From Patescibacteria group bacterium (lineage in GTDB: Bacteria > Patescibacteriota > Microgenomatia > JBGSIU01): a stretch of 64,000 bases of DNA. Location of the stretch: positions 2,161-66,160 of the forward strand of contig JBGSIU010000044.1 in assembly GCA_041742375.1 (NCBI GenBank). The letters are read 5' to 3'. Each line of letters opens with the position of its first letter. The first letter of the stretch is position 1. The position numbers and the translations under genes are program-made. Of this stretch, positions 2,074 to 55,633 are shown piece by piece. Below the pieces are notes generated by a model. That model made no database searches and was not told where the DNA came from. It saw nothing but the letters and a program-made list of their open reading frames with translations.

Positions 2074-2994
2074 ATGAACATTCTAGTTACGGGCGGCGCG
2101 GGTTTTATCGCCTCCCACGTTACGGATTTATACATCGCAGAGGGGTATAACGTGTTAATTGTTGACGATTTGTCTTCCGGCAGCGAAAAAAATCTTAATC
2201 CCAAAGCGAAATTCGTGAAAATGGATATCCGCGATGCAAAAATCCGTGATTTGATCAAAGAGAATCACATCGAGGTGGTTAATCACCACGCCGCACAATT
2301 AAAAGTGCGCGATTCGGTGGAAAATCCCCTTAATGACGCGGACATTAATATCAAGGGTATACTTAACATTCTGGAAGTCATAAAAACTCATCCTTTGAAA
2401 AAATTCATCTTTGCCTCATCCGGCGGTGCCGTGTATGGCGAAGCGGATGTGATTCCGACGCCGGAAACGTTTATGCCGCGGCCATTGTCACCATATGGCA
2501 TCGCAAAATTGGCCAGTGAAAAATATCTCTTTTATTATCACAAAAATTTCGGGTTGAGTTACACGGCCCTGCGCTATGCAAATGTGTTTGGTCCGCGACA
2601 GGATCCATTCGGCGAAGCCGGCGTGGTCGCGATTTTTGCCAAAAAAATGCTGAAAAATGAAACACCGGTGATTAATGGCGACGGCTTGCAAACCCGCGAC
2701 TATGTTTTCGTGAAAGATGTGGCCGCCGCAAATCTCGCGGTCCTCGAAAAAGATTATTGCGGGGAAATCAATATCGGCACCGCACAAGAAATTAACGTCA
2801 ATGATTTGGCAGAAACGCTCAAAAAAGAAACCGGCTACCTTGGCGAAATCAAGCACGGCGAAGCCAAATTGGGGGAACAAAAAAGAAGTTGTTTAAATAT
2901 CTCCAAAGCAAAAAAGATTTTAAACTGGGAGCCAAAATATTATTTATCACAAGGTTTAAAAGAAACAGTGAAATATTTTAAGAAGAATTTATGA
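2074..2994 (+). CDS. NAD-dependent nucleotide-sugar epimerase/dehydratase (UDP-hexose 4-epimerase family)
   Basis: N-terminal Rossmann motif 'ILVTGGAGFIASHV'. 306 aa, with YxxxK-type SDR architecture (YGIAKLASE). Confidence 0.85.
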   Translation: MNILVTGGAGFIASHVTDLYIAEGYNVLIVDDLSSGSEKNLNPKAKFVKMDIRDAKIRDLIKENHIEVVNHHAAQLKVRDSVENPLNDADINIKGILNILEVIKTHPLKKFIFASSGGAVYGEADVIPTPETFMPRPLSPYGIAKLASEKYLFYYHKNFGLSYTALRYANVFGPRQDPFGEAGVVAIFAKKMLKNETPVINGDGLQTRDYVFVKDVAAANLAVLEKDYCGEINIGTAQEINVNDLAETLKKETGYLGEIKHGEAKLGEQKRSCLNISKAKKILNWEPKYYLSQGLKETVKYFKKNL

Positions 2995-3743
2995 TTAGCG
3001 GTAAAAAAATAATCGTCGTCATGCCCGCGTATAACGCGGAAAAAACCATCGAAAAAACCTACGCCGATTTGCCGAAAAATGTGGTTGACGAAGTGATTGT
3101 GGTGGACGATTGCTCGCGCGATCGGACGGTGGAAATCGCCAAAAAGATGGGTTTAAAAACAGTGGTGCACCAGAAAAACACGGGCTACGGCGGCAACCAG
3201 AAAACTTGTTACGCCGAAGCATTGAAAGACGGCGCGGACGTCGTTGTCATGCTGCACCCCGACTATCAATATGACAGCACGCTCACGCCAGATTTGGTGA
3301 AGCCGATTATCGAAGGAAGATATGATTTGATGTTTGGTTCCCGCATTCGCACGCGTGTTGAGGTTTTGGCCGGCGGCATGCCCTTGAAAAAATATATTTT
3401 GAACAGAATTTTCTGCGTCATTGAAAATCTGGTTCTCGGTGTCAATTTCACCGAGCATTTTAGCGGCTACCGCGCGTATTCAAAAAAAGTTTTGCAAGCC
3501 TTGCCATTCAAAAAATTTTCTGATGATTTTGCCTTTGATCAGGAATTCATGATCTCGGCCATTGCCGCGGGTTTTCGCGTGGGCGAAATTCCGGTCCCTG
3601 TCCGCTATTTTTCCGAAGCCTCGTCCATCAAATGGTGGCGCGGCAGCAAATTCCTTTTGCAAACTCTTTCGACGCTTCTAAAATTTATTATCTTCAAAAT
3701 TGGCAGAGTTAAATTTAAGATTTTTATATCGCAAAAGGCATGA
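2991..3743 (+). CDS. GT2 glycosyltransferase, polyprenol-phosphate-sugar synthase-like (Dpm1/GtrB/ArnC-type)
   Basis: 'IIVVMPAYNAEKTIEKT...VIVVDDCSRDRT' N-terminus. Has a DxD region. The ATGA overlap with the upstream gene indicates an operon. Confidence 0.85.
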   Translation: MISGKKIIVVMPAYNAEKTIEKTYADLPKNVVDEVIVVDDCSRDRTVEIAKKMGLKTVVHQKNTGYGGNQKTCYAEALKDGADVVVMLHPDYQYDSTLTPDLVKPIIEGRYDLMFGSRIRTRVEVLAGGMPLKKYILNRIFCVIENLVLGVNFTEHFSGYRAYSKKVLQALPFKKFSDDFAFDQEFMISAIAAGFRVGEIPVPVRYFSEASSIKWWRGSKFLLQTLSTLLKFIIFKIGRVKFKIFISQKA

Positions 3744-5437
3744 AAAATTTCAAAGCAGATATATTTTTTATTTTCGTATTGCTTATTGTCAGTATTTGGG
3801 CGCTAAAGAGTCTTTTTGGTGGAGCATATTACACGTCTCAAGATGGAATTCATCAAATTGCTAGGCTTTATCATTTTAAGCTTGCTTTGAAGGACGGCGT
3901 GTTCCCGCCGCGATGGGCAAATCAGGCGATGTATGGTTTCGGCTATCCGCTTTTCGAATTTAATTATCATTTGCCCTGGTATGCGGCGATGCCATTAATT
4001 TTCTTGCGGGTGGATCTTTTCGACATCATTAAAATCCTGCATTTTGCCGCGTATTTTTTCTCCGGCGTTTTCATGTATTTTTTCTTAAGGGAGCTTGTAA
4101 AAAAACAATGGGTGGTCGCGGCCGGAACAATATTATTTTTAATTTCGCCGTATCGTTTTTTAAACATTTACGTCCGCAATGCCATGGGGGAAGTTTTTGC
4201 CTTCATGTTCTTTCCGCTGGTTTTTTACGCGCTTTTAAAACTCGCGCGCGCGCCAAAAGCGTGGCATGTGGTGCTTCTCTCAATTTCACTTTATGGCATC
4301 ATTTTGTCGCACGCGTTGTCGTTTGTGATTTTTTTGCCGTCCATCCTCATTTTTGCCGCGTATTGTTTGTTGATTACCCAAAACAAAAAACATTTTGTGG
4401 TTCGCGGAACGGCCGCTTTCTTATTATTCCTGTCTCTTTCGGCATATTATCTTTTTCCGGCATATCTTGAGAAAAGTTACACGATTTTTGATTCCAAGTT
4501 CCAGCAAATCTATGGGGGTGAACTTTTGGACATCAAAAAAGTAATATATACCCCTTGGGGTTACGCTGGCAATGGGAACCCCGCAGACACGGTGATGAGT
4601 TTTCAATTTGGGATTGCCAATTGGGCGGCGGCACTCAGCGGATTGATTGCGGTTTTGTACTTTGTTATCAAAAGAAAAATTAAGGAAAATTTATTGATTG
4701 TGATTTCATCTCTCACAATTTTATTTTCTATTTCTCTTACCATGAAGCAATCTTTGCCATTCTGGGACATGATGGCGAAAATTTTTGCGATTGATTTTCC
4801 GTGGAAGTTGGTGGGAATTGCGGTTTTGTGGTCTGGCATTTTATTGTCTCTGGTTCTTAATAAAATCAAGAATCCCGCCAAATATTTCATTTTGATCGTG
4901 ATTTTGGGACTCGCTTTCTATGCCAACCGCAACCACATTCGTGTCAATAAATATGTTTCGTTTGACATTCCCATGGCCGTCTTTTTCGAAAAAAGCACCA
5001 ACACGGAAGACGAATATCTGCCTCAGAGAGTGAATGGTTTTAATTTTGGCGACGACAAAAATATGACGATCAAGTTAATCGACCGAGTCGAGACAGATAA
5101 AAAAGGAAAAGTGTCTCGCGTTGTGGATAAAAATCAAGAATTCTCTTTTAATTATGTTGGCCCGGAAGCAAATGCCACCGTTAAAAAAATCTACTTTCCT
5201 GGCTGGTCAGTAATGACAAATGATAATCATAAAATAAATTTTACCTTCGAAAATGGTTTTTTTAATTTCAAATTGCCCAAAGGCAACTCGAATATCAAGA
5301 TTATGTATGAGGGAACCCTTCTGGTGAGGACATCAACGCTTCTGTCTGTTTTTGCTTGGGGGTTAACACTCGCATATTTTTTATCCCTTATTGGTACCTA
5401 TGTTAAAAACAAAAGTAAAAAAAATAATCAAAAATAA
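3740..5437 (+). CDS. Large polytopic membrane protein, probable GT-C glycosyltransferase (YfhO/ArnT-like acceptor glycosylase)
   Basis: 565 aa with >10 predicted TM helices and a C-terminal soluble domain. It lies immediately downstream of the GT2, with the start overlapping the upstream stop (ATGA). Confidence 0.6.
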   Translation: MKNFKADIFFIFVLLIVSIWALKSLFGGAYYTSQDGIHQIARLYHFKLALKDGVFPPRWANQAMYGFGYPLFEFNYHLPWYAAMPLIFLRVDLFDIIKILHFAAYFFSGVFMYFFLRELVKKQWVVAAGTILFLISPYRFLNIYVRNAMGEVFAFMFFPLVFYALLKLARAPKAWHVVLLSISLYGIILSHALSFVIFLPSILIFAAYCLLITQNKKHFVVRGTAAFLLFLSLSAYYLFPAYLEKSYTIFDSKFQQIYGGELLDIKKVIYTPWGYAGNGNPADTVMSFQFGIANWAAALSGLIAVLYFVIKRKIKENLLIVISSLTILFSISLTMKQSLPFWDMMAKIFAIDFPWKLVGIAVLWSGILLSLVLNKIKNPAKYFILIVILGLAFYANRNHIRVNKYVSFDIPMAVFFEKSTNTEDEYLPQRVNGFNFGDDKNMTIKLIDRVETDKKGKVSRVVDKNQEFSFNYVGPEANATVKKIYFPGWSVMTNDNHKINFTFENGFFNFKLPKGNSNIKIMYEGTLLVRTSTLLSVFAWGLTLAYFLSLIGTYVKNKSKKNNQK

Positions 5438-6851
5438 TCTTTCACCGATTTTAGTTTCCGTTTTTTGTTTTTTCCTCTTTTTTGATGGTTTTCTAACATA
5501 TTTTCATCAAGACGATTTTATTCAAATGTTTTATTCCCAAAATCTAAAATCAGTTTTAGATGCTTTTAACATTTTTCGCTCCGCAGAATTTGCTTTTTAC
5601 AGACCAATTCCCACCCAGCTATATTTTTTTATCACTAAATCAATTTTTGGTTGGAACCCGCTTGGGTATCACGTGGTTAATTTTTTAATTTTTGCAGTTA
5701 ATATTTTTCTTTTTTATCATTTAGTCAAAACGCTTGTTAATAAAAAAATTGCATCGTTCGCGGTGATTTTTTTTGCCGTCAACACAACTCATTTTGCCCC
5801 GCTCCATGCGGCGTCATACGTACATGAACTTTTTCTGGTTTTATTCTCACTTTTATCATGCTTATCTTTTGCCAAATATTTAAAATCTGCGGTTCGTTTT
5901 AATTTATTCTTAGCGGTTTTGTTTTTTATAGGTGCTTTAATGTCAAAGGAAACCGCGGTCGTCGTCCCGGGGCTTTTGGCAATCGAATATCTGCTTTTTT
6001 CTCCCAAAAAGTCAATGATAAGCTTTTTTAAAATTATTTTATTATTTTTAATTTTTTTAATATCGTATTTATCTTTTCATTTTTTTTTATATGGGATGCC
6101 GGAAAGTTCTTCTTACAGATTAGTTATTGGAAAAGAAAATTTAAAAATGTATTTATGGTATTTTATTTGGGGTCTTTCCGCACCGAATATTTTGATTGAT
6201 TTTATAGAACCCGGATTAAAAATTAAAAATGTTTTTTTTGATATTACAAAAATTAATGGTTATGTATTTTTTATGGGATTTTTTGCATTAATGATCTTTC
6301 TTGGAATATTATTTACCATCAATTTGTTAAAAAAACGAGACAATAATAAGGTTCTAATTTTTTCTTTTCTTTGGTTTTTCCTAAGTTTGATTCCCCTAGT
6401 TGTTTTTCCACTTCATAAACTTGCCATCGAACAAGCGCTTGCCATCCTTGGACTATCTCTTTTTGTTGGTTTTGTTATTTCAAAGTTTTCGAACAAAGTG
6501 GCTTTTTGTTTTATATGTCTATATGTTCTTATTGCTATTAATTCAGCAGTGATCGAAAGACGCACTCATTGGATTATTAGGAGTTCCATTCAGGCAAAAA
6601 ACATCGTTAATTTGATTAAAAATGCAAAAATAGGTTCCAAGAAACAAATATATTTTAAAGATGGCGCGGTGGTGATTCCTGAATATGGTTCGTCAAAACA
6701 GATCTTTCTTGCTTCGGGAAACGGAAAACTGTTTTCCCTGATGTTTGGAATCATAGAGCGGCACGTGCACTTTGAAAGCGTTAATCCGCTACCTCTAAAT
6801 TACACTGGCGAAATTCTGAAAGTTGACTCTTCCAAGCTTCTAGGTTATTGA
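5391..6851 (+). CDS. Polytopic membrane protein, GT-C-like (PMT/ArnT-type, with a 'DD' loop motif)
   Basis: 486 aa, hydrophobic, with the motif 'HQDDF...FYRPIPTQLYFF'. Paralogous to the convergent minus-strand gene 6781..8430. The true start may be the ATG at 5400. Confidence 0.55.
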   Translation: MVPMLKTKVKKIIKNNLSPILVSVFCFFLFFDGFLTYFHQDDFIQMFYSQNLKSVLDAFNIFRSAEFAFYRPIPTQLYFFITKSIFGWNPLGYHVVNFLIFAVNIFLFYHLVKTLVNKKIASFAVIFFAVNTTHFAPLHAASYVHELFLVLFSLLSCLSFAKYLKSAVRFNLFLAVLFFIGALMSKETAVVVPGLLAIEYLLFSPKKSMISFFKIILLFLIFLISYLSFHFFLYGMPESSSYRLVIGKENLKMYLWYFIWGLSAPNILIDFIEPGLKIKNVFFDITKINGYVFFMGFFALMIFLGILFTINLLKKRDNNKVLIFSFLWFFLSLIPLVVFPLHKLAIEQALAILGLSLFVGFVISKFSNKVAFCFICLYVLIAINSAVIERRTHWIIRSSIQAKNIVNLIKNAKIGSKKQIYFKDGAVVIPEYGSSKQIFLASGNGKLFSLMFGIIERHVHFESVNPLPLNYTGEILKVDSSKLLGY

Positions 6852-8430
6852 TTTTTAGAAAATTAAGACCTCCGGTTTTTTCCATAATCAGTTTTTGTTC
6901 ATAAATATTTAAACACCGATCCATGTCATAGTAGTTTTCCTGCAGGTTCTGGGGGAGCAGAGAAGATTTCAGAAGATATCTTTTGCTGAAATCATCGGTT
7001 AAAACATTAAAAGCCACCCCGTCAGCAAGCGTCGCACGTGCACCGGGACTATCTATCCGCCAAACGACATAGTGAATCTTTTTTGGAATTTTCAGCTTTT
7101 CAAAAGCGGTAAACCTGTTTTTCACTTCAAACGGATCGGCAAAAACCCAGTGATTGTTGTCGAGGAATCTCAAAGTTAAAAAACTGGTTAAGATAAATGA
7201 CAAAATCACCAGATATGTCAGCGCATATTTATGGTTTGAATATATCACGGAAGCAAAAGCGATCCAGAAACCAACCTGCGCCAAAAAAGGATAATATGGA
7301 TATACTCTTTTTGGAATCACCAGAATGGGGAGAAGTGCCATAAAAAACCAAAGTACGCCAAAGAGGGTAATTTTATTAAAAATAGATCTTGGATTTTTGA
7401 TTAAAGCCAAAATGCCGGTGATGAACAACAATATAACGTTGAGGCTTAGAATAAGCGGATAGATTTGGAACGTTTCCGTAAACCACTGGTCCGTAAAAGG
7501 AAATTGGCGGGGGGCAAGATGAACCGTGGTTGGCTCGGAAAAATTAAGAAGCCAAGCAAAAAAAACAATAACATTTTTAATTATCATTTGAGGAGAAAAA
7601 CCCAAAGAATATGAATCCGTGGTGGGGATTTTAAAAACGATAAAACGAAAAATAAGATAAAAGAGGACGATACCAAACTGAAAAGTGAGGCGTAGAAAAG
7701 TTTGCTTATTCATTTTTCTGAAAAAAATAACCGTTAAAAACATTATGGTAGGCAAGACCACGGCGGTTTCGATTGACAGTAGTGATAAAACAAGAAAAAG
7801 TTCCGGAAGAAAAAATTTGCAGGCTCGTTTCTTATCAAACAGTAAAAAATAGAGCAAAATATAAAATAAAGCAATCGAGTTAAACGTTGAAGCCACCCAA
7901 GTCAATTCATAAAAATGGGTGGCGCTGATTGAAAAAAGAAACGCGGTAAAAAACCCGGTTAAATTATTCCGGAGAAGTTTTTTGACAAAATAAAAAACCA
8001 AAACTGAATTAACGGAATGAAGAATAAGTTGAAAAAAATGATAATAGTTAGCATTTAAACCGAAAAGCCGGTAGAATGTGAAATAAAACAGTTGCAAAGA
8101 AATCGGACGGTAATAAATCGTGTCGCTTCGCGGAATAAAGAATTGAAAAAACTCTCTTAAATTTGAAGCTCGGGAGATAGAAAAAAGAAAAAAATCATCT
8201 TTAAAAAAATAGACAGAAAAAGATTTACGAAATAATATAAAATTAAGGGAAGAAAAAAAAGCAACCTGCACGAAAAATAAAAATATATGAAAATATCTAT
8301 CCTTATTCCCGTGTTTAACGAAGAGGAAACGATGATGCAAATTCTTGATAAAGTTTCTTCGGTTAATATCTTCCATATAAAAAAAGAAATAATTGTTATT
8401 GATGATTGTTCTACAGACCGAACTGCTCAA
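6781..8430 (-). CDS. Polytopic membrane protein, GT-C-like; inverted paralog of 5391..6851
   Basis: 549 aa. Shares the 'FKDDFF...YYRPISLQLFYF' motif with the upstream + strand gene. Its 3' end overlaps that gene by ~70 bp. Confidence 0.55.
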   Translation of the reverse strand: MSSSVCRTIINNNYFFFYMEDINRRNFIKNLHHRFLFVKHGNKDRYFHIFLFFVQVAFFSSLNFILFRKSFSVYFFKDDFFLFSISRASNLREFFQFFIPRSDTIYYRPISLQLFYFTFYRLFGLNANYYHFFQLILHSVNSVLVFYFVKKLLRNNLTGFFTAFLFSISATHFYELTWVASTFNSIALFYILLYFLLFDKKRACKFFLPELFLVLSLLSIETAVVLPTIMFLTVIFFRKMNKQTFLRLTFQFGIVLFYLIFRFIVFKIPTTDSYSLGFSPQMIIKNVIVFFAWLLNFSEPTTVHLAPRQFPFTDQWFTETFQIYPLILSLNVILLFITGILALIKNPRSIFNKITLFGVLWFFMALLPILVIPKRVYPYYPFLAQVGFWIAFASVIYSNHKYALTYLVILSFILTSFLTLRFLDNNHWVFADPFEVKNRFTAFEKLKIPKKIHYVVWRIDSPGARATLADGVAFNVLTDDFSKRYLLKSSLLPQNLQENYYDMDRCLNIYEQKLIMEKTGGLNFLKINNLEAWKSQLSEFRQCNLEVAD

Positions 8431-8970
8431 ATTTTAATGAAAAGCGGCAATAAAATCAAATATCTGAGAAATGAAAAAAATCGCGGGAAAGGATATTCGG
8501 TGCGACGCGGTATTAAAGTGGCAACGGGTGACGTCATGATCATGCAGGATGCGGATTTGGAATATGACCCCAACGATTATGAAAAGCTTCTAAAACCGAT
8601 TTTCGACGGGAAAGCAAATGTTGTTTTTGGCTCGCGTTTCACCGGAGAACATAACAATCTTTTCTTCACGCATTTCATCGCCAACAAATTTATCACCTTT
8701 TTAATCGACGTCTTTTTTAACACCACCTTATCCGATGTTGAAGTGGGATACAAAGTTTTTAAAAAAAGCTTGCTTGATAAAATTAATCTTCGTGAAGACC
8801 GATTTAGTTTTGAGATTGAAATCACCGCCAAAATTTTAAAACTTAAAGAAAAAATCTTTGAAGTGCCGATTTCGTATACGGGCCGTGGCTATGAAGAAGG
8901 AAAAAAAATCGGATGGAAAGATGGTCTTCAGGCTTTGTGGTGCGTTTTTAAATATCGATTTTTTGTATGA
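8287..8970 (+). CDS. GT2 glycosyltransferase (polyprenol-phosphate sugar synthase-like)
   Basis: 'ISILIPVFNEEETMMQILDKV...IIVIDDCSTDRT' and a 'QDADLEYD' DxD motif. Confidence 0.85.
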   Translation: MKISILIPVFNEEETMMQILDKVSSVNIFHIKKEIIVIDDCSTDRTAQILMKSGNKIKYLRNEKNRGKGYSVRRGIKVATGDVMIMQDADLEYDPNDYEKLLKPIFDGKANVVFGSRFTGEHNNLFFTHFIANKFITFLIDVFFNTTLSDVEVGYKVFKKSLLDKINLREDRFSFEIEITAKILKLKEKIFEVPISYTGRGYEEGKKIGWKDGLQALWCVFKYRFFV

Positions 8971-10487: not shown

Positions 10488-12046
10488 AAAAAACCAAATT
10501 TTTTCTCATAATCTTCCTCATCTTGTACTTGTCATTATTTCTGAGAATTCATGATTTTGAAAACCATGTTTATGTCTGGGGAGACAGTGCGCGCGATATT
10601 CTGACGGCGCGTGAATCTTTAAGAGTGGGAACGATTCCTTTGACGACGGCTTTTTCCTCCGCCGGCCCTTTTGTTTTCGGTCCGCAATATTATTGGCTTC
10701 TGATGGTGGTATATTTTTTTAATTTTAACTCATGGAATATTTTTTATTACTTTCTCATTATGCAGTCTCTTTTTTTTGTGATCGTGATGATGTTCATCGG
10801 CAAAGAACTTGTGGGTCGGAAATTTGCTCTTGTTTTGGGTCTTGTCACCGCCTTCTCCGGCAGACAAATAATTCGTGCAACGTATTTTTCTCAGCATTCG
10901 TTTGTTGCTCTGCCAAGCGCGCTCGCCGTGTTGTCTTTAATTAAATTTTTCCGGAAAAAAAATAATTCACACGTTTTTTGGTGTGCTTTTTGGGTTTCAA
11001 ACTCCATTCTTCTTCATTATCAAGCGCTTGGGCTTCTTGTTTTAATTTTGCCATTCATATGTGATAAGTCGCCCGTAAAAGAAAAATTTAAACGAATGGC
11101 AACTTTTGTTCTTGGTTTAATTCTTCCGGCAACGCCTTTTTTGGTGTGGGATTATCAAATGCAATTCGCCAACATAAGGAACGTCTTGGATTATGTGCTG
11201 ATCGGTCAATACCGAATTTATATTCCCAACCGGTGGACATGGCATCTTTTTAATTTTTGGCCGGAATATACCGCCGATATTTTTACCGGTAATAATATTT
11301 TCGCGGGAATTTTGCTTTATTTCGCACTTGGGGTTTTACTCATGAAATGCGGCCTCAAAAAAGTTAACCGGAAAATTATTTGGATATTTTTAATTTTTAT
11401 CTTCTATTTTTTTTATTTGAGGTTTTACCGGGGAGAGAAGTTTGAAGGTTATTTAATGTATCTCCATCCGTTTATTTTGTTCATTTTGGCCTGTGGGCTT
11501 TATTTTTTTTCAAAAGCTAAAATTCTATTCCTCGCGCTCTTTTTATTTGCCGCTTTTTCTTCCGCAAACATGCTTAAAGAATATTATGCAAATCCCAAGC
11601 CAAATCAGGAAAGTATGTTTCAGGAAATAGCTGAAAATCTGGTTAAACAATCCGGTTCAAAAAAACGTAAGTTTTCCGTGTTTGATTTTGCCATCTATGA
11701 TAGTCAAACAGAAACTTGGAGTTATTCAGAAGCTTTTTCGCTTTATCTCGACACGAAAAACATGCTTGATGAAAAAAACGGATTTAAGATTGGATTTTGC
11801 TTCAGTTTTTGTCCGAAAAATGCGGTGTTTTTGAAGGATAAAACACTTCAGGAATCGGGGCACAAGATTGTTTTGATAGATTTGGTTAAGAAAAAAAATC
11901 GCGACAAATTCCGATTAGTAAATAGGTCGCCGCACGCGGTTTATGAGGAAATGATTTTTTGGTGGGCAAATCGCCCTTTAGAATCATCTTTCAGTTTGGA
12001 TAAATTTATTTATGAACGGACAATTGGAAAATTTATAAAATCATGA
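10484..12046 (+). CDS. Polytopic membrane protein, putative GT-C-type glycosyltransferase (second of the tandem paralog pair)
   Basis: 520 aa. 'HDFENHVYVWGDSARDILTARESLRVGTIPL...SAGPFVFGPQYYWLLMVVYFF' and a C-terminal 'EEMIFWWANRPL' conserved with its neighbour. Confidence 0.55.
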   Translation: MKKTKFFLIIFLILYLSLFLRIHDFENHVYVWGDSARDILTARESLRVGTIPLTTAFSSAGPFVFGPQYYWLLMVVYFFNFNSWNIFYYFLIMQSLFFVIVMMFIGKELVGRKFALVLGLVTAFSGRQIIRATYFSQHSFVALPSALAVLSLIKFFRKKNNSHVFWCAFWVSNSILLHYQALGLLVLILPFICDKSPVKEKFKRMATFVLGLILPATPFLVWDYQMQFANIRNVLDYVLIGQYRIYIPNRWTWHLFNFWPEYTADIFTGNNIFAGILLYFALGVLLMKCGLKKVNRKIIWIFLIFIFYFFYLRFYRGEKFEGYLMYLHPFILFILACGLYFFSKAKILFLALFLFAAFSSANMLKEYYANPKPNQESMFQEIAENLVKQSGSKKRKFSVFDFAIYDSQTETWSYSEAFSLYLDTKNMLDEKNGFKIGFCFSFCPKNAVFLKDKTLQESGHKIVLIDLVKKKNRDKFRLVNRSPHAVYEEMIFWWANRPLESSFSLDKFIYERTIGKFIKS

Positions 12047-13437
12047 AAATTAAATTTAATTGGGAATATTTTATTGTTATATTTTTCATTATTATTTATG
12101 CGGTGGCGGCACTCGCAGTCTCACTTAACAGATATTGGCAATTTAACGCATTTTGGTATGATTTTGGGATCTTTGATTCAACTATTTGGCAACTTAGTCG
12201 TTTTCATTTTCCTCTTATCATTCAAAAAGCACCACCGACAGGGATAATTGTTTGGGGTGACCATTTCAATCCGAGCGCCATTTTTCTTTCGCCTCTTTAT
12301 TGGCTAACAAGCAAACAGGAAATTTTAATTGCAACACAAGCTATTTTCGTATGCTTAGGAGCAGCAGTGGCATATCTAACAGTAAAGAAAACTGTAAAGA
12401 GTTCAGTTGTTAAAATTGCATTGATTGTAAGTTATCTTGGATTTGTTGGTATGCAAAATGCGCTTTTCACAGATGTTCATAACATAGTTTTTGCAGTTCT
12501 ACCTCTAACTCTTACAATTTGGGCAATTTTTAACAAAAAATGGAATTTGTATTTTATTTTTTTACTTTTAACAATTGGTTTTCAAGAAAATCTGGCATTG
12601 ACTGGGGCAATGCTTGGAGTTTTTCTTGTCCTTTCAAGGAAGAATGTGAAAATAGGCATAATTAGTATACTTGTATGCATCTCTTATTTTTTTATTGTGA
12701 TTAAGTTTATAACTCCGTATTTTAATCACTCACCCTATGCCTATCAACCTGAACCTTTTAACAATCCTTTTGAACTTATCGCAAGATTTTTCATTCCAAG
12801 TATTAAATTGAAAACAATTGTTCTTTCATTTTTGACGTTTGGCCTGCTTCCTGCGGTTTCAATCCCGACATTGCCGCTTATAGTTGAACAATATTTTGAA
12901 AGATTTGTTTTGAATTCTGCGGCAACTCGCTGGGATTTGGGTTTCCACTATAATTCGATCCTGTCACCAATTTTTTTCTTGGGTTCGCTATCGGTGGTTA
13001 TTAAGTTTCAGAATAAACCTATTTTTTCAAAACTAATGAAATTGTGGGGGGTCACAACGATTCTAATTGTAATTTTTCTCCACAGATTCTATCTCCATGG
13101 TCCATTAATGCAGTCAACAATGCCTGCTTTTTACCAAGCGACGAAAGATACAGAATTTCTGTATAAATTCACTGATAAAATTCCAAGAGGGAAATTTCTC
13201 ATGATTCAAAATAATCTTGCCAGTCACTTTACGCATGAGAAGATGATGCTTCTTGATTCAAGGTATAATCAAATTAAGCCTGATATTATTGTGTTTGACA
13301 CGCGCTCAGGACAAAACGCGAACAATTTCTATCCGTTAGAATTTTCCCAGGTCAAAAAAATGATTTCTGCATTGGAAAAAGATAAAAACTATAAAAAAAT
13401 ATTAGTAACCAACGATCAATTCTATTTTGAAAAATAA
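12043..13437 (+). CDS. DUF2079-like polytopic membrane protein (glycosylation-associated)
   Basis: 464 aa. The 'WGDHFNPSAIFLSPLYW' motif resembles DUF2079 'GDHF' proteins. Paralog of 19275..20678. Confidence 0.55.
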   Translation: MKIKFNWEYFIVIFFIIIYAVAALAVSLNRYWQFNAFWYDFGIFDSTIWQLSRFHFPLIIQKAPPTGIIVWGDHFNPSAIFLSPLYWLTSKQEILIATQAIFVCLGAAVAYLTVKKTVKSSVVKIALIVSYLGFVGMQNALFTDVHNIVFAVLPLTLTIWAIFNKKWNLYFIFLLLTIGFQENLALTGAMLGVFLVLSRKNVKIGIISILVCISYFFIVIKFITPYFNHSPYAYQPEPFNNPFELIARFFIPSIKLKTIVLSFLTFGLLPAVSIPTLPLIVEQYFERFVLNSAATRWDLGFHYNSILSPIFFLGSLSVVIKFQNKPIFSKLMKLWGVTTILIVIFLHRFYLHGPLMQSTMPAFYQATKDTEFLYKFTDKIPRGKFLMIQNNLASHFTHEKMMLLDSRYNQIKPDIIVFDTRSGQNANNFYPLEFSQVKKMISALEKDKNYKKILVTNDQFYFEK

Positions 13438-13446
13438 AAAAAACTA

Positions 13447-13481
13447 ATTAGTAATTTGTCATTAGTAATTAGTAATTAATT
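13447..13481 (+). repeat. Direct repeats of ATTAGTAATT (x3, two overlapping) in the junction preceding the GT2 gene that lacks a canonical start
   Basis: 'aATTAGTAATTtgtcATTAGTAATTAGTAATTaattacg'. Confidence 0.8.
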
Positions 13482-14231
13482 ACGAATTTATCTGTTGCAA
13501 TTGCTACATTCAACGAAGAACAAAAAATAGAGAGAACTTTGAAGTCGGTAGAGGGTTGGGCGGATGAAATTGTGGTTGTCGACGGTAACTCCACCGACAA
13601 AACCGTTGAAATCGCAAAAAAGTTCACGGATAAAATTTTCTCTCATAAAAATGAATTAATGTTTCACAAAAACAAAAATTTGGCGATTGAGAAATGCACA
13701 AGTGATTGGATTTTTTTTCTTGATGCGGATGAAGTGGTGACCGATGAATTAAAAAAGGAAATTACCGATATCATAAATAATGCCGCCAATAGTTTTGACG
13801 GTTATGACATGCCACGCTCCAATTATTTTCTTGGAAGATTTTTAAAAAAAGGCGGCCAATATCCGGACACGCGCGTACGTCTTTTTAAAAAGGGTAAAGG
13901 CGTATGGCCGTGCAAATCCGTACACGAACAGATCAACATGAATGGGGAGGTGGGACATCTCAAAAACAACCTTCTCCATTATTCCTACGAATCCCTTGGA
14001 GAATATTGGAAAAAAGCAAACATATACACATTGCTGACCGCAGAAAATATCAAAAAAGAAAGAAGTGGCGTATTCGTAAAATTCCTCAAATATGTTTTTT
14101 ATCTGCCGATCTACACATTTTTCAACATTTTCGTTCGTCACAAGGGCTATGTCGATTCTTGGCAAGGCCTGTTATTCGCCAAATTCTCCGCCCTCCATTT
14201 TCCAATTGCTTATATAAAATCCCTACGGTAA
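13476..14231 (+). CDS. GT2 glycosyltransferase; start codon unresolved
   Basis: The conserved GT2 N-terminus 'LSVAIATFNEEQKIERTL...EIVVVDGNSTDKT' is encoded from 13476, right after an in-frame TAA. There is no ATG/GTG/TTG before the ORF-track TTG at 13539. DxD 'FFLDADEV'. Confidence 0.7.
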   Translation, partial: LITNLSVAIATFNEEQKIERTLKSVEGWADEIVVVDGNSTDKTVEIAKKFTDKIFSHKNELMFHKNKNLAIEKCTSDWIFFLDADEVVTDELKKEITDIINNAANSFDGYDMPRSNYFLGRFLKKGGQYPDTRVRLFKKGKGVWPCKSVHEQINMNGEVGHLKNNLLHYSYESLGEYWKKANIYTLLTAENIKKERSGVFVKFLKYVFYLPIYTFFNIFVRHKGYVDSWQGLLFAKFSALHFPIAYIKSLR

Positions 14232-14254
14232 TTTTTTTGCTAAAATGAAATTGT

Positions 14255-15430
14255 ATGAAATTCAAAACAATTTTTTCTTTCTGGTTTTTGTGGCGAGCGG
14301 GGTCATTTTTAATTTCCGTACTCGCCATAATAATTCTTCCGAATTTTGGAAATAAATTTCCCTACGTGAACGAAATGCTAAAAAATTCCGGTCTGCCTGC
14401 TTGGTTTTGGCAATCTGGCAATTTTGATGGTGTGCATTATGTCGGAATTGCCAAAGATGGTTACATCAGACAGTTCACTCAAGCCTTTTTTCCGGTTTAT
14501 CCAATGATGATAAAAATTATTTCTCCGATATTTTTTAATAACTTTGTTTTTGCCGGAGTTTTTTTGTCGTCAGTTTTTACGCTTTTGGCGGCATGGATGT
14601 TGCGTAATCTATTGATAATTAATGATCTGAACCATTCATTACAACGAAAAAATATTAAATGGGCGTTGCTGTTCTTTTTGTTCTTTCCCATGTCCTTTTT
14701 TTACGGCTCAATATACAATGAATCGTTTTTTTTGTTTTTGGTTTTCTCAGTCTTTTATTTTGCAAAAAAAAGAAACTGGCTAACAGTTGGTATATTGGGA
14801 GCACTGGCGAGTGGAACAAGACTCGTTGGAATATTTTTATTGCCTACAATACTCTATGCATTTATTGTAGGAACGCCCCTACAGACAACAAGATACAAGA
14901 TACAAAATATCGCGTATATTTTCTTAATTCCCCTCGGTTTTCTCATCTACATACTTTTTCTTCAAATTAATTTCGGTGATGCTCTATATTTTTTACATGC
15001 ACAAAGCGCCTTTGGTGCTTCAAGATCAACAGGGATAGTCTTGCCAATAGTCACATTTTGGCGCTACGTTAAAATTTTAACAACTGTTCCAGTTTTTCAA
15101 TATAACTTTTGGGTTGCAGTATGGGAGGCTGGATTTTTTGCCACAGGTGGAGTAATTCTTGCCATACTCAGCTGGATGAAGATAAAAAACAAAGACGGTA
15201 TAAAAGGGGTAGGATCTTCATATCTAATTTTCTCTTGGTTTTGTTTGCTACTCCCAACATTGACCGGAACTCTTTCGTCTTTTCCAAGATATTTGCTTAT
15301 ATGTTTTCCGATCTATATTTTTCTCGGATCTTTACCAAACAAATTTGTTAAACTATCGATATTATTTCTTTTTTTAATTCTCAATTTCATATTTTCGACT
15401 TTATTCCTAAGAGGATATTGGGTTTCGTAA
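14255..15430 (+). CDS. GT-C membrane glycosyltransferase, PIG-V/GT76-like (mannosyltransferase-like)
   Basis: 391 aa, polytopic. 'NFDGVHYVGIAKDGY' resembles the FxDxxHYxxIAxxGY signature of PIG-V-type mannosyltransferases. Confidence 0.55.
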   Translation: MKFKTIFSFWFLWRAGSFLISVLAIIILPNFGNKFPYVNEMLKNSGLPAWFWQSGNFDGVHYVGIAKDGYIRQFTQAFFPVYPMMIKIISPIFFNNFVFAGVFLSSVFTLLAAWMLRNLLIINDLNHSLQRKNIKWALLFFLFFPMSFFYGSIYNESFFLFLVFSVFYFAKKRNWLTVGILGALASGTRLVGIFLLPTILYAFIVGTPLQTTRYKIQNIAYIFLIPLGFLIYILFLQINFGDALYFLHAQSAFGASRSTGIVLPIVTFWRYVKILTTVPVFQYNFWVAVWEAGFFATGGVILAILSWMKIKNKDGIKGVGSSYLIFSWFCLLLPTLTGTLSSFPRYLLICFPIYIFLGSLPNKFVKLSILFLFLILNFIFSTLFLRGYWVS

Positions 15431-15448
15431 AAAAATACTTAAAAATCT

Positions 15449-16054
15449 ATGTCAATAAATGTAACTAGAGGATACGGCTTACTTGAAAAATTTCTCGCCG
15501 AGCGGCGTGTCGCGCAAGCAAATTCTCTCATCGATTTAAAACACAGAAAAGGCAGAGTTTTGGACATTGGTTCCGGAAGTCACCCTTTTTTTCTTTTAAA
15601 CACAATTTTTTTTGAAAAATTCGGTGTCGATCAGCTTATTTCGGAAAACGACAAGAAAAAATATCTCAACGATAAAATTAAGCTTTTCCGATTTGACATT
15701 GACATCAACACAAAACTGGAATTTGCCGATAACTATTTTGATTGCATCATCATGCTGGCGGTGGCGGAGCATTTGAGGGAAAAAGAATTATTGTCTCTTT
15801 TGCACGAGGTTCACCGTGTCTTAAAAAAAGATGGTTGTTTTATCTATACCACTCCGGCGGCTTGGAGTGATATCATTCTAAAAATCGGGTCATACATTGG
15901 TTTTGTGAGCAGAAATGAAATTGAAGAACATAAAGAATATTATGATCATGAAAAAATGAAAAAATTACTGGTTTCTTCGGGTTTCGATAAAAACAAAATG
16001 AAATTTGGATATTTTGAATTTAAACTTAACACCTGGGGGATGGTGACAACATGA
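15449..16054 (+). CDS. Class I SAM-dependent methyltransferase
   Basis: Motif I 'VLDIGSGSHPFF' and post-I 'IIMLAVAEHL'. Confidence 0.75.
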   Translation: MSINVTRGYGLLEKFLAERRVAQANSLIDLKHRKGRVLDIGSGSHPFFLLNTIFFEKFGVDQLISENDKKKYLNDKIKLFRFDIDINTKLEFADNYFDCIIMLAVAEHLREKELLSLLHEVHRVLKKDGCFIYTTPAAWSDIILKIGSYIGFVSRNEIEEHKEYYDHEKMKKLLVSSGFDKNKMKFGYFEFKLNTWGMVTT

Positions 16055-16722
16055 AAAATCAAATTTTAATCGCGCTACCGGCATATAACGAAGGAAAAGT
16101 AATCGTCGCGGTGATTTCAGATGTGAAAAAACAGGGATATAAAAACATCTTAATTATCGATGACGGATCAAGTGATGAAACGAAATTCAAAGCAGAAAAA
16201 TCAGGAGCCATAGTGGTCTCACATTTTAAAAATTGCGGATTGGGAGTTTCTTTGAGAACGGCAATTAAATATGCTAAAAAAAATCAATTTGACGTTTTAG
16301 TGACGATGGATTCCGACGGACAACACCAGGCGGAAGATATAAAAAAATTAATTTCGAAAATTGAAGCCGGATTCGACGTCGTAATTGGCATACGCGATTT
16401 CAGGCGGGGAAAAGTCAATTTTGTCCGAAGGGTGATTCTTGTTCTCTCAGACATATATACTTTCATCCTGTTTGGAATTTTCACTCATGATTCCCAGTCC
16501 GGTTTTCGGGCATTTTCAAAAAATGCAATCCGGAAAATAAATTTAAAAAGTGAAAGGATGGAGGTTTCTTCGGAAATATTTGCGGAAATTAAGCAATTTA
16601 AGTTAAAATATGCCGAAGTGCCGATTAAAGCAATCTATACGAAATATTCGCTCAGCAAGGGCCAAAAAAACTCCAATGTGTTTAGCGTCAGCTGGAAATT
16701 GTTGATTAATATGTTCAGATAG
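16051..16722 (+). CDS. GT2 glycosyltransferase (Dpm1/GtrB-like)
   Basis: 'ILIALPAYNEGKVIVAVISDV...ILIIDDGSSDET' and 'VTMDSDGQH'. Confidence 0.8.
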   Translation: MKNQILIALPAYNEGKVIVAVISDVKKQGYKNILIIDDGSSDETKFKAEKSGAIVVSHFKNCGLGVSLRTAIKYAKKNQFDVLVTMDSDGQHQAEDIKKLISKIEAGFDVVIGIRDFRRGKVNFVRRVILVLSDIYTFILFGIFTHDSQSGFRAFSKNAIRKINLKSERMEVSSEIFAEIKQFKLKYAEVPIKAIYTKYSLSKGQKNSNVFSVSWKLLINMFR

Positions 16723-16749
16723 CGGTAAACTATTAAATATGTATACGAT

Positions 16750-17085
16750 ATGATTCTTCAAGCAATATTAATTCTATTTTTGATTTTTGCCGTGAGCCGG
16801 GTATATCTGCAGTGGAAAAACGGGAATTTAAAAATCGTCAGTTTTATTTTCTGGGTGACAATTTTTTGTGGTGCGATTTTTGGCATTATCCAGCCTGAAA
16901 TGACAAGTAAAATCGCAAGGCTCGTCGGAATTGGCCGGGGAGCCGATGTCGTGTTATATTTTTCGGTGGCAATTTTATTTTATCTTTTATTCAGACTGTA
17001 CATTTATGTTGAAAATCTGCGGCATGAAATTTCCGACATTATTTCTCAGCTTGCTTTAAAAGAAGATAAAAAAAACCAGAAATGA
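16750..17085 (+). CDS. Small 3-TM membrane protein (DUF2304/GtrA-like candidate lipid-linked sugar flippase)
   Basis: 111 aa with three hydrophobic segments and a charged C-terminal tail. It sits immediately downstream of a GT2, as small flippase-like partners often do. Confidence 0.4.
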   Translation: MILQAILILFLIFAVSRVYLQWKNGNLKIVSFIFWVTIFCGAIFGIIQPEMTSKIARLVGIGRGADVVLYFSVAILFYLLFRLYIYVENLRHEISDIISQLALKEDKKNQK

Positions 17086-32016: not shown

Positions 32017-32021
32017 ATTCT

Positions 32022-49078: not shown

Positions 49079-49093
49079 AAACCTTCTATTTAT

Positions 49094-51153: not shown

Positions 51154-51180
51154 AAATTATACCAATATTTATAAAAATTA

Positions 51181-55627: not shown

Positions 55628-55633
55628 TAATAT

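Follow-up and report, generated by a model that had tools for sequence, protein, structure and literature searches.

A probable multiplied transmembrane glycosylation system of GT2 donor synthases and GT-C glycosyltransferases in a surface glycan locus of a Patescibacteria bacterium

Gene content and layout of the locus

The stretch of DNA analysed (64 kb; the window) most likely represents a large cell-surface glycan locus, of which the front part was studied here. The host is a small, uncultured, low-GC bacterium of the Patescibacteria (Candidate Phyla Radiation) whose nearest named relatives, judged by protein, are Microgenomates such as Gottesmanbacteria; its genome probably measures about 1 Mb, as inferred from the 1.03-Mb contig of a 62% relative. 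The locus is of the ABC-transporter-dependent glycan type and contains numerous GT4 and GT2 genes as well as pathways for nonulosonic acids; the ABC pair 31168/31968 is likely to be the exporter of a lipid-linked acceptor glycan. Genes are designated by their lowest coordinate, with (-) for the minus strand (Table 1).

All ORFs named in a preliminary description of the window were recovered at the same positions. Most adjoining genes overlap by 4 nt (start/stop). The description had spoken of one operon, but the plus-strand run is split by the minus-strand genes 6781(-) and 18090(-). GT-C-like genes account for about half of all genes in the first 25 kb. Three of them (5391, 6781(-) and 12043) had been left uncounted within the range described, and 551, 19275 and 21763, probably together with 18090(-) and 26809, lie beyond it. 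Donor synthases and GT-C genes stand at roughly 4 to 11–13, so there is no 1:1 relation; since the GT-C genes are far in excess, most GT-C enzymes could be assigned no donor.

The GalE-like protein 2074 scored 174 bits against the GalE model TIGR01179 (cut-off 262). A 2074-type epimerase is located upstream of the 2991-type gene in Gottesmanbacteria-type loci as well, and 2074 probably supplies the nucleotide sugar to GT2 2991. The methyltransferase gene 15449 is inserted between GT-C 14255 and GT2 16051, and the same insertion was found in the related contig L060.

Table 1. Features of the locus, with coordinates in the window and the main evidence for each assignment
Gene	Coordinates	Strand	Assignment	Evidence
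551	551..2008	+	GT-C-like polytopic protein, PMT_2-like	hhalign against 8967 family
2074	2074..2994	+	GalE-like NAD-dependent sugar-nucleotide epimerase/dehydratase	PF01370, 202 bits
2991	2991..3743	+	Single-domain DPMS-like GT2, proposed polyprenyl-phosphate sugar synthase	Sequence and predicted structure
3740	3740..5437	+	GT-C fold glycosyltransferase, YfhO/PTPS_related type	GT-C fold in predicted structure
5391	5391..6851	+	GT-C, PMT_2	PF13231, 40.1 bits (cut-off 26.1)
6781(-)	6781..8271	-	GT-C, paralogue of 5391	phmmer against 5391, E 7e-29
8287	8287..8970	+	Single-domain DPMS/ArnC/AglJ-like GT2	PDB: DPMS 1e-20, ArnC 1e-13, GtrB 4e-9
8967	8967..10487	+	GT-C, PMT_2	PF13231, 35.6 bits
10484	10484..12046	+	GT-C, tandem duplicate of 8967	phmmer against 8967, E 1e-144
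12043	12043..13437	+	DUF2079 polytopic membrane protein	PF09852, 102 bits
13476	13476..14231	+	SunS/GmaR-like GT2	PDB: GmaR 3e-18, SunS 2e-12
14255	14255..15430	+	GT-C, PIG-V/Mannosyl_trans2-like	PF04188, 33.9 bits (cut-off 22.4)
15449	15449..16054	+	SAM-dependent methyltransferase	PF13489, PF08241
16051	16051..16722	+	Single-domain PpgS/GacI-like GT2	NCBIfam PpgS, 141.5 bits
16750	16750..17085	+	DUF2304 small membrane protein, GacJ/Rv3632-like	PF10066, 81.2 bits, full-length
18090(-)	18090..19211	-	Polytopic membrane protein, possibly GT-C-like, unclassified	Eight predicted TM helices
19275	19275..20678	+	DUF2079 membrane protein, second copy	PF09852, 151.7 bits
21763	21763..23184	+	GT-C, PMT_2	PF13231, 52.7 bits
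26809	26809..28275	+	Polytopic, probably PMT_2-like GT-C	PF13231 sub-threshold, E 0.0045, 17.7 bits
31168	31168..32016	+	ABC-2 permease	PF01061 (of the PF01061/PF00005 pair)
31968	31968..32786	+	TagH/Wzt-like ATPase	PF00005; TagH and Wzt NCBIfam matches
38226	38226..39155	+	GtrB/ArnC/PgfS-type GT2, canonical	NCBIfam: PgfS 149.6 bits, ArnC 125 bits

GT-C membrane proteins

The products of 3740, 5391, 6781(-), 8967, 10484, 12043 and 14255 are GT-C proteins by Pfam, paralogy or predicted structure. Pfam searches gave PMT_2, DUF2079 or PIG-V matches above cut-off for 5391, 8967, 12043, 14255, 19275 and 21763. The two DUF2079 proteins, 12043 and 19275, are paralogous (E 1e-60) and belong to a family which we take to be assigned to the GT-C clan (Pfam clan CL0111). 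In every GT-C family the first loop after TM1 contains a conserved acidic motif, for instance GD-ARD in the 8967 family, NFDGVHY in 14255 and WDE in 551.

The score of 3740 against the YfhO Pfam model (15 bits) was below the cut-off of 28.5; its predicted structure has a GT-C fold. D35 and R42 in its first loop after TM1 are invariant, and an extracytoplasmic beta-sandwich domain (∼450–523) is followed by a C-terminal TM anchor. The start of 6781(-) is likely to be GTG 8271, taken from the gene call on an identical Logan contig (L001); the longer ORF, to 8430, would overlap GT2 8287.

No Pfam match was found for 551. A profile of its 44 orthologues was aligned to the 8967 (PMT_2) family with an hhalign probability of 95.4% over 345 columns, and a weak match to Agl23 (TIGR03663) was obtained; TM1 is encoded only if a non-canonical start codon upstream of TTG 551 is used. 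Genes of the 551 type occur in two or three tandem copies in relatives. No Pfam match was found for 18090(-) either, which gave a weak NCBIfam match to the AZOBR_p60025 family, also matched by the PMT_2 protein 21763. The PF13231 alignment of 26809 spans model positions 2–157 of 160.

GT2 enzymes

Four GT2 enzymes had been described as Dpm1/GtrB/ArnC-type; PDB and NCBIfam matches upheld this for 2991, 8287 and 16051 and not for 13476. The first three are single-domain proteins (223–250 aa), as had been claimed, without predicted TM helices. DPMS (5mlz) was the best PDB sequence match of each, followed for 8287 and 16051 by ArnC and GtrB (for 16051, DPMS 8e-12 and ArnC 4e-8), and their top NCBIfam matches were AglJ, PpgS, dolichyl-P hexose transferase, PgfS and ArnC. 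For 8287 (motif DAD) AglJ scored 130 bits, with further matches to PgfS, ArnC and PpgS; for 16051 (motif DSDGQH) the PpgS match was full-length and top-ranked, yet below the cut-off of 370. None of the GT2 enzymes reached an NCBIfam equivalog cut-off. In 2991 an invariant H89-P90-D91 takes the place of DXD and a C-terminal helix spans 215–238; its predicted structure resembles DPMS only slightly more than it does GpgS and MpgS. On the basis of these matches, 2991, 8287 and 16051 are proposed to be polyprenyl-phosphate sugar synthases. The fourth such synthase predicted from sequence is 38226, which lies in an amino-sugar gene block beyond the range described earlier; its PgfS and ArnC matches are both full-length and its C-terminal TM helices are placed at ∼220–238 and ∼266–284. 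The cluster would hold three or four donor synthases.

The top NCBIfam match of 13476 was SunS (57.7 bits). As a Dpm1-type candidate it was rejected: DPMS, ArnC and GtrB were missing from its PDB matches and polyprenyl-P synthase models scored only 16–30 bits. Its ORF opens right after an in-frame TAA (13473–13475) and the first ATG, GTG or TTG does not occur before 13539; ATT 13479 is the likely start because only then is the conserved GT2 N-terminus LSVAIATFNEE included. The protein probably serves the same pathway as a conventional transferase on the cytoplasmic face and not as a lipid-P-sugar synthase.

Linkage of GT2 and GT-C genes

Three GT2 genes out of the four have a GT-C gene directly after them. 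With GT-C-like genes making up about half of those in the first 25 kb, this is not above chance within the window (shuffle P = 0.33), and only comparison, through the loci of relatives and through gene fusions, shows the linkage to be real. In 45 of 56 loci a 2991-type GT2 and a 3740-type GT-C lie directly side by side, whereas shuffled orders gave 16.6 ± 2.6; such pairs were found in three different arrangements. Adjacency of 8287 and 8967 is retained in close relatives only, two of which (L002 and L060) keep the order of a GT2 followed by two PMT_2 genes (8287, then 8967/10484). The protein P0322 is a natural fusion of an 8287-type GT2 and an 8967-type GT-C in a single polypeptide, with 40% identity to the whole of 8287 over residues 11–252 and 28% to 8967 over residues 266–730. 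Genes of the 16051 type adjoin DUF2304 in 18 of 20 cases and a 14255-type GT-C in 16 of 20; since the 16051 and 16750 types are conserved downstream neighbours of 14255, they are likely to be its Dpm1-type partner.

The 13476-type genes lie at most two genes from a 14255-type GT-C in 26 of 34 cases, and P0138 and P0271 each combine a 13476-type domain with an 8967-type GT-C. In relatives, 13476-type domains are joined to ordinary GT2 and GT4 domains as well, so that fusion marks a shared pathway and not donor synthesis. Of the pairs drawn up in the preliminary description, 2991/3740 and 8287/8967+10484 were sustained by the relatives and the fusion; 13476 had to be given up as the synthase for 14255, with which 16051 and 16750 are now grouped. 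The best-supported donor/transferase modules are 2991+3740, 8287+8967/10484 and 14255+16051+16750. The broader claim of single-domain GT2 enzymes coupled to GT-C enzymes, implying several lipid-linked monosaccharide donors, stands on the relatives' loci and the fusions.

DUF2304 protein and comparison with known systems

The 16750 product (111 aa, three predicted TM helices) had been guessed to be a DUF2304-like flippase. The family assignment was correct; the flippase role was not retained, as DUF2304 is the GacJ/Rv3632 family, known as a GT2-activating partner. Binding of GacJ gives GacI a higher Vmax and a higher affinity for Und-P, Rv3632 acts on PpgS as GacJ on GacI, and a distinct Wzx-like protein has been proposed as the flippase of the GacI/GacJ system (bioRxiv 10.1101/180810). 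By analogy, 16750 is probably the membrane partner and activator of 16051. Among the ORFs of the 64-kb window none was recognisable as a flippase of the GtrA, ArnE/F or Wzx-like kind.

The TM-less DPM1-like 16051 followed directly by 16750, with 14255 as a conserved GT-C neighbour, resembles GacI/GacJ/GacL of Streptococcus pyogenes and PpgS (Rv3631)/Rv3632/Rv3779 of Mycobacterium tuberculosis, PpgS being the best NCBIfam match of 16051; as in the group A carbohydrate pathway, the locus includes an ABC-transporter-exported glycan. However, the PpgS score is far under the equivalog cut-off, GacL is listed as PMT_2 (PMC8035078) whereas 14255 is PIG-V-like, a methyltransferase separates GT-C and GT2 here, and an equivalent of the Wzx-like GacK is absent from the window.

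A polyprenyl-P-synthase-like GT2 paired with a GT-C is likewise found in CsbB/GtcA/YfhO (Bacillus, Staphylococcus, Listeria), GtrA/GtrB/GtrC and ArnC/ArnEF/ArnT. The protein 3740 falls in the YfhO/PTPS_related branch, and 38226 is of the GtrB/ArnC/PgfS type and has two C-terminal TM helices. The C-terminal TM helices of GtrB, ArnC and CsbB are missing from 2991, 8287 and 16051; 2991 further differs in having HPD in place of DXD, and GtrA and ArnE/F genes are absent from the window. Several GT-A/GT-C pairs per genome with one distant common flippase have precedent in Lactococcus lactis (CsdAB, CsdCD and CsdEF, sharing CflA) and Bacillus subtilis (CsbB-YfhO, YkcBC and YkoST) (PMC8035078). The pairs described here differ in being packed into one locus of a probably ∼1-Mb genome, outnumbered ∼3:1 by extra GT-C genes.

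In mycobacterial and corynebacterial envelope assembly, Ppm1 and DPA donors feed Emb, Aft, MptA/B, PimE and other GT-C enzymes. Few lipid-monophosphate sugar donors and many GT-C enzymes are common to both settings, and in the related contig L061 an MptA_B-family GT-C adjoins a PTPS_related gene, but the proteins described here are not members of those families at the sequence level.

Proposed mechanism and alternatives

It is probable that the region encodes a multiplied multi-component transmembrane glycosylation system of GT2 donor synthases and a GT-C battery. The scheme that follows goes beyond the observed families, folds, conserved neighbourhoods and fusions in what it infers about the lipid on which the GT2 enzymes act, the sugars, the flipping step and the GT-C acceptors. 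On the cytoplasmic face, 2991, 8287, 16051 and the TM-anchored 38226 would each use a nucleotide sugar to load polyprenyl phosphate with a single sugar, giving three or four different polyprenyl-P-monosaccharides; 16051 would act in complex with 16750. The lipid-linked sugars would be flipped by a protein not recognisable within the window. On the outer face, at least 11 GT-C enzymes would use them as donors for a glycan or protein acceptor, probably a polymer that the GT4 and GT2 enzymes encoded nearby assemble and the Wzm/Wzt-like ABC transporter exports.

The same chemistry could be directed at secreted or membrane proteins, as O-glycosylation of the actinobacterial Ppm1/Pmt or streptococcal PgfS/PgfM kind, which we regard as possible but unlikely. 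Several GT-C genes are of the PMT_2 family and 38226 is most similar to PgfS, a component of a streptococcal protein-glycosylation system (PMC12041528). GT-C fold similarity does not reveal the acceptor, however, the genes lie within a classical ABC-transporter-dependent glycan locus, and the substrates of PMT_2-family enzymes such as GacL, GtlB and CsdD are polysaccharides or teichoic acids (PMC8035078).

There is little probability that the short GT2 enzymes act as ordinary transferases of the cytoplasm, extending a lipid-pyrophosphate-linked oligosaccharide or making small glycosylated solutes, with the GT-C enzymes as polymerases, ligases or oligosaccharyltransferases for Und-PP-linked glycans and the adjacency reflecting no more than a common pathway. 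The unreached equivalog cut-offs, the GpgS/MpgS likeness of 2991 and its lack of a canonical DXD would agree with it; against it, polyprenyl-P sugar synthases consistently head the sequence matches of all three, a GT2 paired with DUF2304, as 16051 is, is the hallmark of GacI/GacJ and PpgS/Rv3632, adjacency kept through rearrangements and direct fusion is typical of donor-synthase/transferase pairs, and a solute synthase would not be expected to have its GT-C neighbour in so many loci. Four equivalent 1:1 modules in one operon, with 13476 as the donor synthase for 14255 and DUF2304 as the flippase, are just as improbable: 14255 comes straight after 13476 and their types stay close, 13476-type domains are fused to a GT-C, and 16750 is a small three-TM protein about the size of GtrA, but 13476 is best matched by GmaR, SunS and ThuS-type enzymes and is also fused to ordinary transferases, 16750 matches DUF2304 and not GtrA, and minus-strand genes interrupt the run.

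The mechanism of the multiplied GT2/GT-C system preferred here is itself already known; what is unusual is the degree of its multiplication in one locus.

Gene organization

The window has a GC content of ~35% and is filled almost entirely by plus-strand glycan-synthesis genes; the segment 2001–4000, which spans the genes for the GalE-like epimerase 2074 and for 2991, a GT2 of very high conservation, has a GC content of 43% against ~35% elsewhere. Genes are named by start coordinate, with (-) denoting the minus strand. ORF calling reproduced the gene coordinates of the preliminary description throughout 2991–17085 (see table). The same description had placed the region in a single operon, which is refuted because 6781–8271 and 18090–19211 are minus-strand genes. 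Scanning 1–20 kb for promoters and terminators gave signals no higher than shuffled expectation, and transcription units were therefore definable by strand changes only. A GT4 gene (17082–18197, +) and the polytopic gene 18090–19211 (-) are convergent, with a 108-nt overlap; gene calls on an identical Logan contig (L001) agree.

Two genes need a non-canonical start codon if their conserved N-termini are to be included. The reading frame of the GT2 gene 13476 opens directly after a TAA stop (13473–13475) and contains no ATG, GTG or TTG before 13539 (window 13473–13541), and the conserved N-terminus is encoded only with an ATT start at 13479. In the GT-C gene 551, TM helix 1 is encoded between a stop at 506–508 and TTG 551, where the only candidate starts are CTG 515, ATA 527/530 and ATT 542.

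Features of the glycan-synthesis locus in window coordinates
Feature	Coordinates	Strand	Length
GT2	2991–3743	+	250 aa
Polytopic	3740–5437	+	565 aa
Polytopic	5391–6851	+	486 aa
Polytopic	6781–8271	-	496 aa
GT2	8287–8970	+	227 aa
Polytopic	8967–10487	+	506 aa
Polytopic	10484–12046	+	520 aa
Polytopic	12043–13437	+	464 aa
GT2	13476–14231	+	251 aa
Polytopic	14255–15430	+	391 aa
Methyltransferase	15449–16054	+	201 aa
GT2	16051–16722	+	223 aa
Three TM helices	16750–17085	+	111 aa
EpsE/TuaG-like GT2, downstream	23156
Wzm/Wzt-like ABC exporter (ABC-2 permease and TagH/Wzt-like ATPase)	31168–32786
GT2	38226–39155
Two nonulosonic-acid pathways	32823–34978, 48029–50295, 54665–56785

Classification of the GT2 enzymes

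PF00535 is the sole Pfam domain in 2991, 8287, 13476 and 16051, and a processive-synthase extension is absent from all four. Three of them, 2991, 8287 and 16051, match each other at E values of 1e-19 to 1e-21 and share the archaeal dolichyl-phosphate mannose synthase 5mlz as top PDB sequence match, followed for 8287 and 16051 by ArnC and GtrB. Their best NCBIfam matches are polyprenyl-phosphate sugar synthases (AglJ, PpgS, dolichyl-P hexose transferase, PgfS and ArnC), with none of the three reaching an equivalog cut-off; 16051 matches the PpgS equivalog NF058614 over its full length with 141.5 bits (cut-off 370) and is a relative rather than an equivalog. Structural comparison of the predicted 2991 model gave scores of 22.9 for DPMS (225 of 250 residues aligned), 21.2 for glucosyl-3-phosphoglycerate synthase, 20.5 for mannosyl-3-phosphoglycerate synthase, 19.8 for ArnC and 16.8 for GtrB. 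[quoted passage not shown] At the position of the DXD motif, aligned to the DAD of DPMS (DAD in PfDPMS), 8287 has DAD and 16051 has DSD; 2991 has H89-P90-D91, which does not vary among 51 orthologues in related loci or among 40 database homologues.

A hydropathy scan found no C-terminal TM helix in 2991, 8287 or 16051. In this they are like GacI and PpgS and unlike GtrB, ArnC and CsbB. A further GT2, 38226, has C-terminal TM helices at ~220–238 and ~266–284, matches PgfS and ArnC over the full length and is likely to be a fourth polyprenyl-P sugar synthase of the canonical ArnC/PgfS type; it is surrounded by PseB/PseC-like, DegT, hexapeptide acetyltransferase and dehydratase genes that form an Arn-like amino-sugar module.

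The preliminary description had assigned all four of its GT2 enzymes to the Dpm1/GtrB/ArnC type, and this held for all except 13476, the best PDB matches of which are GmaR (3e-18) and the peptide S-glycosyltransferases SunS (2e-12) and 7msk (8e-11), with DPMS, ArnC and GtrB not among its PDB matches. Its top NCBIfam match is SunS (TIGR04195) at 57.7 bits against a cut-off of 350, which denotes subgroup likeness only. By similarity it stands nearer to the SunS/GmaR subgroup than to the DPM1 type. A GT2 of the 13476 type is fused to an 8967-type GT-C in two proteins, P0138 and P0271 (L059 2865–5150), which are 62% identical to each other. P0138 was considered as proof that 13476 is a donor synthase and was found not to be decisive, since this type of GT2 occurs joined to further GT2 domains and to a GT4 as well; such fusions are better read as a sign of pathway membership than of donor synthesis.

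Classification of the GT-C membrane proteins

Pfam classification of the polytopic proteins gave matches above the cut-offs to PMT_2 (5391, 8967 and 21763), DUF2079 (12043 and 19275) and Mannosyl_trans2 (PIG-V; 14255). To these are added 10484, a tandem duplicate of 8967 (E 1e-144), and 6781(-), a paralogue of 5391 (E about 1e-27). Only the C-terminus of 3740 matches YfhO (PF09586), at 15.2 bits with a cut-off of 28.5; many of its homologues at 30–37% identity, the named ones all belonging to Microgenomates or other Patescibacteria, carry precomputed matches to PF10131 (PTPS_related) or PF09586. The predicted model of 3740 supports a GT-C fold, its top structural matches being GT-C enzymes only, and has a β-sandwich domain at approximately residues 450–523 followed by the last TM helix.

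PDB sequence searches with 8967 and 5391 returned nothing even at E = 1, so that fold comparison was needed. Profile comparison shows the 551 family to be PMT_2-like (probability 95%). Single-sequence hhalign runs of 18090(-), 26809 and 551 against the 3740 family were uninformative (1–6% probability); among these three a signal came only from the 551 family profile. 18090(-) stayed unclassified and 26809 has a full-length but sub-threshold PMT_2 match. In total, the window holds 11 well supported and two probable GT-C-type genes, the 11 including a partial gene (26–403) whose C-terminus matches that of 551.

Each family has an acidic motif that is conserved after TM1 (D35 in 3740, GD-ARD in 8967, NFDGVHY in 14255 and WDE in 551), the kinds found in the first loop across the families being D, DE, DxxxD and NFDG. 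Since the N-termini are short and Lys-rich, the positive-inside rule implies that this loop should face outward. The GT-C fold combined with an acidic first-loop residue, a second feature of multi-component systems, was observed, with the outside location predicted from the rule.

Runs of at least five consecutive GT-C genes, consisting of PMT_2, YfhO and PTPS_related members or of seven 551-type copies, were also seen on other Patescibacteria contigs (L065 1–13524; L021; L022), and GT-C arrays therefore seem common among Patescibacteria.

Linkage of GT2 and GT-C genes

Within the window a GT-C gene follows a GT2 gene at chance level (shuffle, P = 0.33), because GT-C genes make up about half of the genes. 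The window alone gives no support for pairing; comparative data decide. A scan for the 3740 family with one genome per species gave 56 loci, those named being mostly from Gottesman-, Davies-, Ames-, Woese-, Pace- or Blackburnbacteria. The 2991-type GT2 gene directly adjoins the 3740-type GT-C gene in 45 of them (upstream in 16, downstream with shared strand in 25, convergent in four), against 16.6 ± 2.6 adjacencies (maximum 26) in gene-order shuffles; it lies one gene off in four further loci, and three of the rest end at a contig edge. Persistence of the pairing through three arrangements argues for functional coupling of 2991 and 3740. The 2991-type GT2 is conserved at 63–90% identity versus 28–37% for the 3740-type GT-C, in keeping with a donor chemistry that is conserved and an acceptor that varies.

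In the same loci the 16051-type GT2 gene adjoins a DUF2304 gene in 18/20 and a 14255-type GT-C gene in 16/20 cases. On these counts the natural triple would therefore be 14255, 16051 and 16750, which resembles GacL/GacI/GacJ and replaces the previously proposed pair of 13476 and 14255. The other two modules of the preliminary description, 2991/3740 and 8287/8967, were upheld by comparison. For the latter, the GT2-then-PMT_2 order is kept only in close relatives (L002 and L060) and lost in distant ones, and an exhaustive search retrieved a 731-residue protein (P0322) of which residues 11–252 are 40% identical to all of 8287 and residues 266–730 are 28% identical to 8967. P0322 is a fusion of exactly this pair, a natural single polypeptide joining a DPM1-like GT2 to a PMT_2-type GT-C. 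Conserved GT2/GT-C linkage, likewise a feature of multi-component systems, is found for 2991/3740 and 16051/14255, and for 8287/8967 through close relatives and P0322.

In a 62%-identical relative, which lies on a 1.03 Mb contig, the 2991-type GT2 and 3740-type GT-C genes are parted by a restriction-modification island with an MmeI-like methyltransferase/endonuclease, a D12 methyltransferase and a DpnI-like gene (L002 1206–9889); the relative also has one 8967-type gene rather than two and, in this segment, no DUF2079 gene.

The DUF2304 protein and the search for a flippase

The small protein 16750 has three TM helices and matches PF10066 (DUF2304) over its full length with 81.2 bits (cut-off 25.5), in agreement with the family guessed beforehand; it has no other Pfam match and no NCBIfam match, and is not a member of GtrA. 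The flippase role proposed with that guess gained no support, the studied DUF2304 members being activators of GT2 enzymes. GacJ, a DUF2304 protein of Streptococcus pyogenes, binds the GT2 GacI in a complex that withstands detergent; it brings the Km of GacI for undecaprenyl phosphate down from 18.7 to 1.1 µM and raises Vmax several hundred-fold, and PpgS is reported to be likewise stimulated by Rv3632 (bioRxiv 10.1101/180810). A three-TM DUF2304 gene adjoining a GT2 gene, as in GacI/GacJ and PpgS/Rv3632, is also seen at 16051/16750, and by analogy 16750 is predicted to be the partner of 16051.

No GtrA, ArnE/F or Wzx-like gene was found by Pfam among the scanned window ORFs, and no unassigned small ORF is left in 1–33 kb; a priming phosphoglycosyltransferase gene was likewise not seen in the window. 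The missing flippase gene does not exclude the mechanism, because known systems often share one flippase encoded elsewhere; genomes with three GT-A/GT-C pairs are also documented (PMC8035078). In Gottesmanbacteria loci an extra gene lies between the GalE-like epimerase and 2991-type GT2 genes (L005 5727–7244 and the same position in others). It was considered as a flippase and rejected; it encodes a 505-residue flavin amine-oxidase-family protein and is missing from the window.

Downstream genes

In addition to the tabulated features, GT4-type genes and methyltransferases lie downstream. The ABC transporter genes indicate that the locus also encodes a glycan export route of the ABC-transporter-dependent kind. 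One nonulosonic-acid pathway is that of pseudaminic acid, with PseB, PseC and PseI above NCBIfam equivalog cut-offs and a PseF-like cytidylyltransferase; the second comprises a NeuB-like synthase and a NeuC-type hydrolysing 2-epimerase. Embedded in the sugar-modification block are HisF-like and glutamine-amidotransferase (HisH-like) genes and a B12-binding radical SAM enzyme (50299–51834 and 53109–54494), which suggest unusual nonulosonic-acid substituents such as amidino or C-methyl groups. A 584-residue fusion protein in which a DegT-type aminotransferase is followed by a SAM methyltransferase domain (40149–41903) and three soluble proteins of 358–439 residues with no Pfam match (44859–45935, 51841–53064 and 61802–63121) were also observed.

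Proposed mechanism and comparison with known systems

At the inner face of the membrane, 2991, 8287 and 16051 together with 38226 would make three or four polyprenyl-P-monosaccharides, with 16051 working alongside its DUF2304 partner 16750. The lipid-linked sugars would then be flipped by a protein that has no recognizable gene in the window. On the outer side at least 11 GT-C enzymes would add them to an acceptor, as decoration or as extension; the simplest candidate for this acceptor is the glycan that leaves through the ABC transporter 31168–32786. The mechanism as a whole is considered probable. The analysis shows directly to which families and folds the proteins belong, that gene neighbourhoods are conserved and that fusions exist; the lipid acceptor of the GT2 enzymes, the sugars, the flipping and the final GT-C acceptors are what we infer.

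Proteins rather than a polysaccharide may be the GT-C acceptors, an arrangement that is compatible with the same chemistry and is judged distinctly less probable than the exported glycan. One-to-one modules served by a DUF2304 flippase are improbable, as GacJ and Rv3632 activate GT2 enzymes and GacK, a separate Wzx-like protein, is the proposed flippase of the GacI/GacJ system (bioRxiv 10.1101/180810). That the GT2 enzymes are ordinary transferases or solute synthases is similarly hard to credit.

The proposed donor-and-GT-C system has the same working mode as the multi-component transmembrane glycosylation of GtrABC, ArnC/ArnT, CsbB/YfhO and GacI/GacJ/GacL. It differs from the classical form in that three GT2 enzymes lack TM helices (the GtrB/ArnC/CsbB type has two at the C-terminus), the locus has no flippase gene, none of the scores is at equivalog level and 2991 has HPD instead of DXD; the gene pair that defines the GacI/GacJ variant, a GT2 gene beside a DUF2304 gene, is present. 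The multiplication is unusual, with about four donor synthases and 11–13 GT-C genes in less than 40 kb. It is also unusual that the 2991/3740-type pair is so widely conserved in Microgenomates and that GT2–GT-C fusions occur naturally. A literature search returned no paper on GT-C or GT39 expansions in Candidate Phyla Radiation/Patescibacteria, although such may exist.

As a speculation that we regard as unlikely, Microgenomates Patescibacteria might assemble a major envelope glycan mostly outside the membrane, as mycobacteria do, with a few polyprenyl-P-sugar donors feeding a dozen or more GT-C enzymes. An undescribed, highly conserved phylum-wide pair of HPD-motif GT2 and YfhO-like GT-C would form the core, and the SunS-like GT2 repeatedly fused to PMT_2 GT-C enzymes could represent a further, so far unrecognized type of GT-C partner.

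The mechanism is well known from Firmicutes, Actinobacteria and Gram-negative bacteria, and the result extends known biology without altering it. Most Patescibacteria have never been cultured; their genomes are tiny, and they presumably live attached to other cells. Surface chemistry, of which there is almost no knowledge in this group, probably matters for this lifestyle. The analysis provides a testable map of one surface-glycan locus, comprising predicted donor-making GT2 enzymes, a small protein predicted to activate one of them and likely GT-C partners, and the 2991/3740-type pair, conserved across many Microgenomates loci, together with the natural fusions offers a convenient entry for biochemistry and structure determination.
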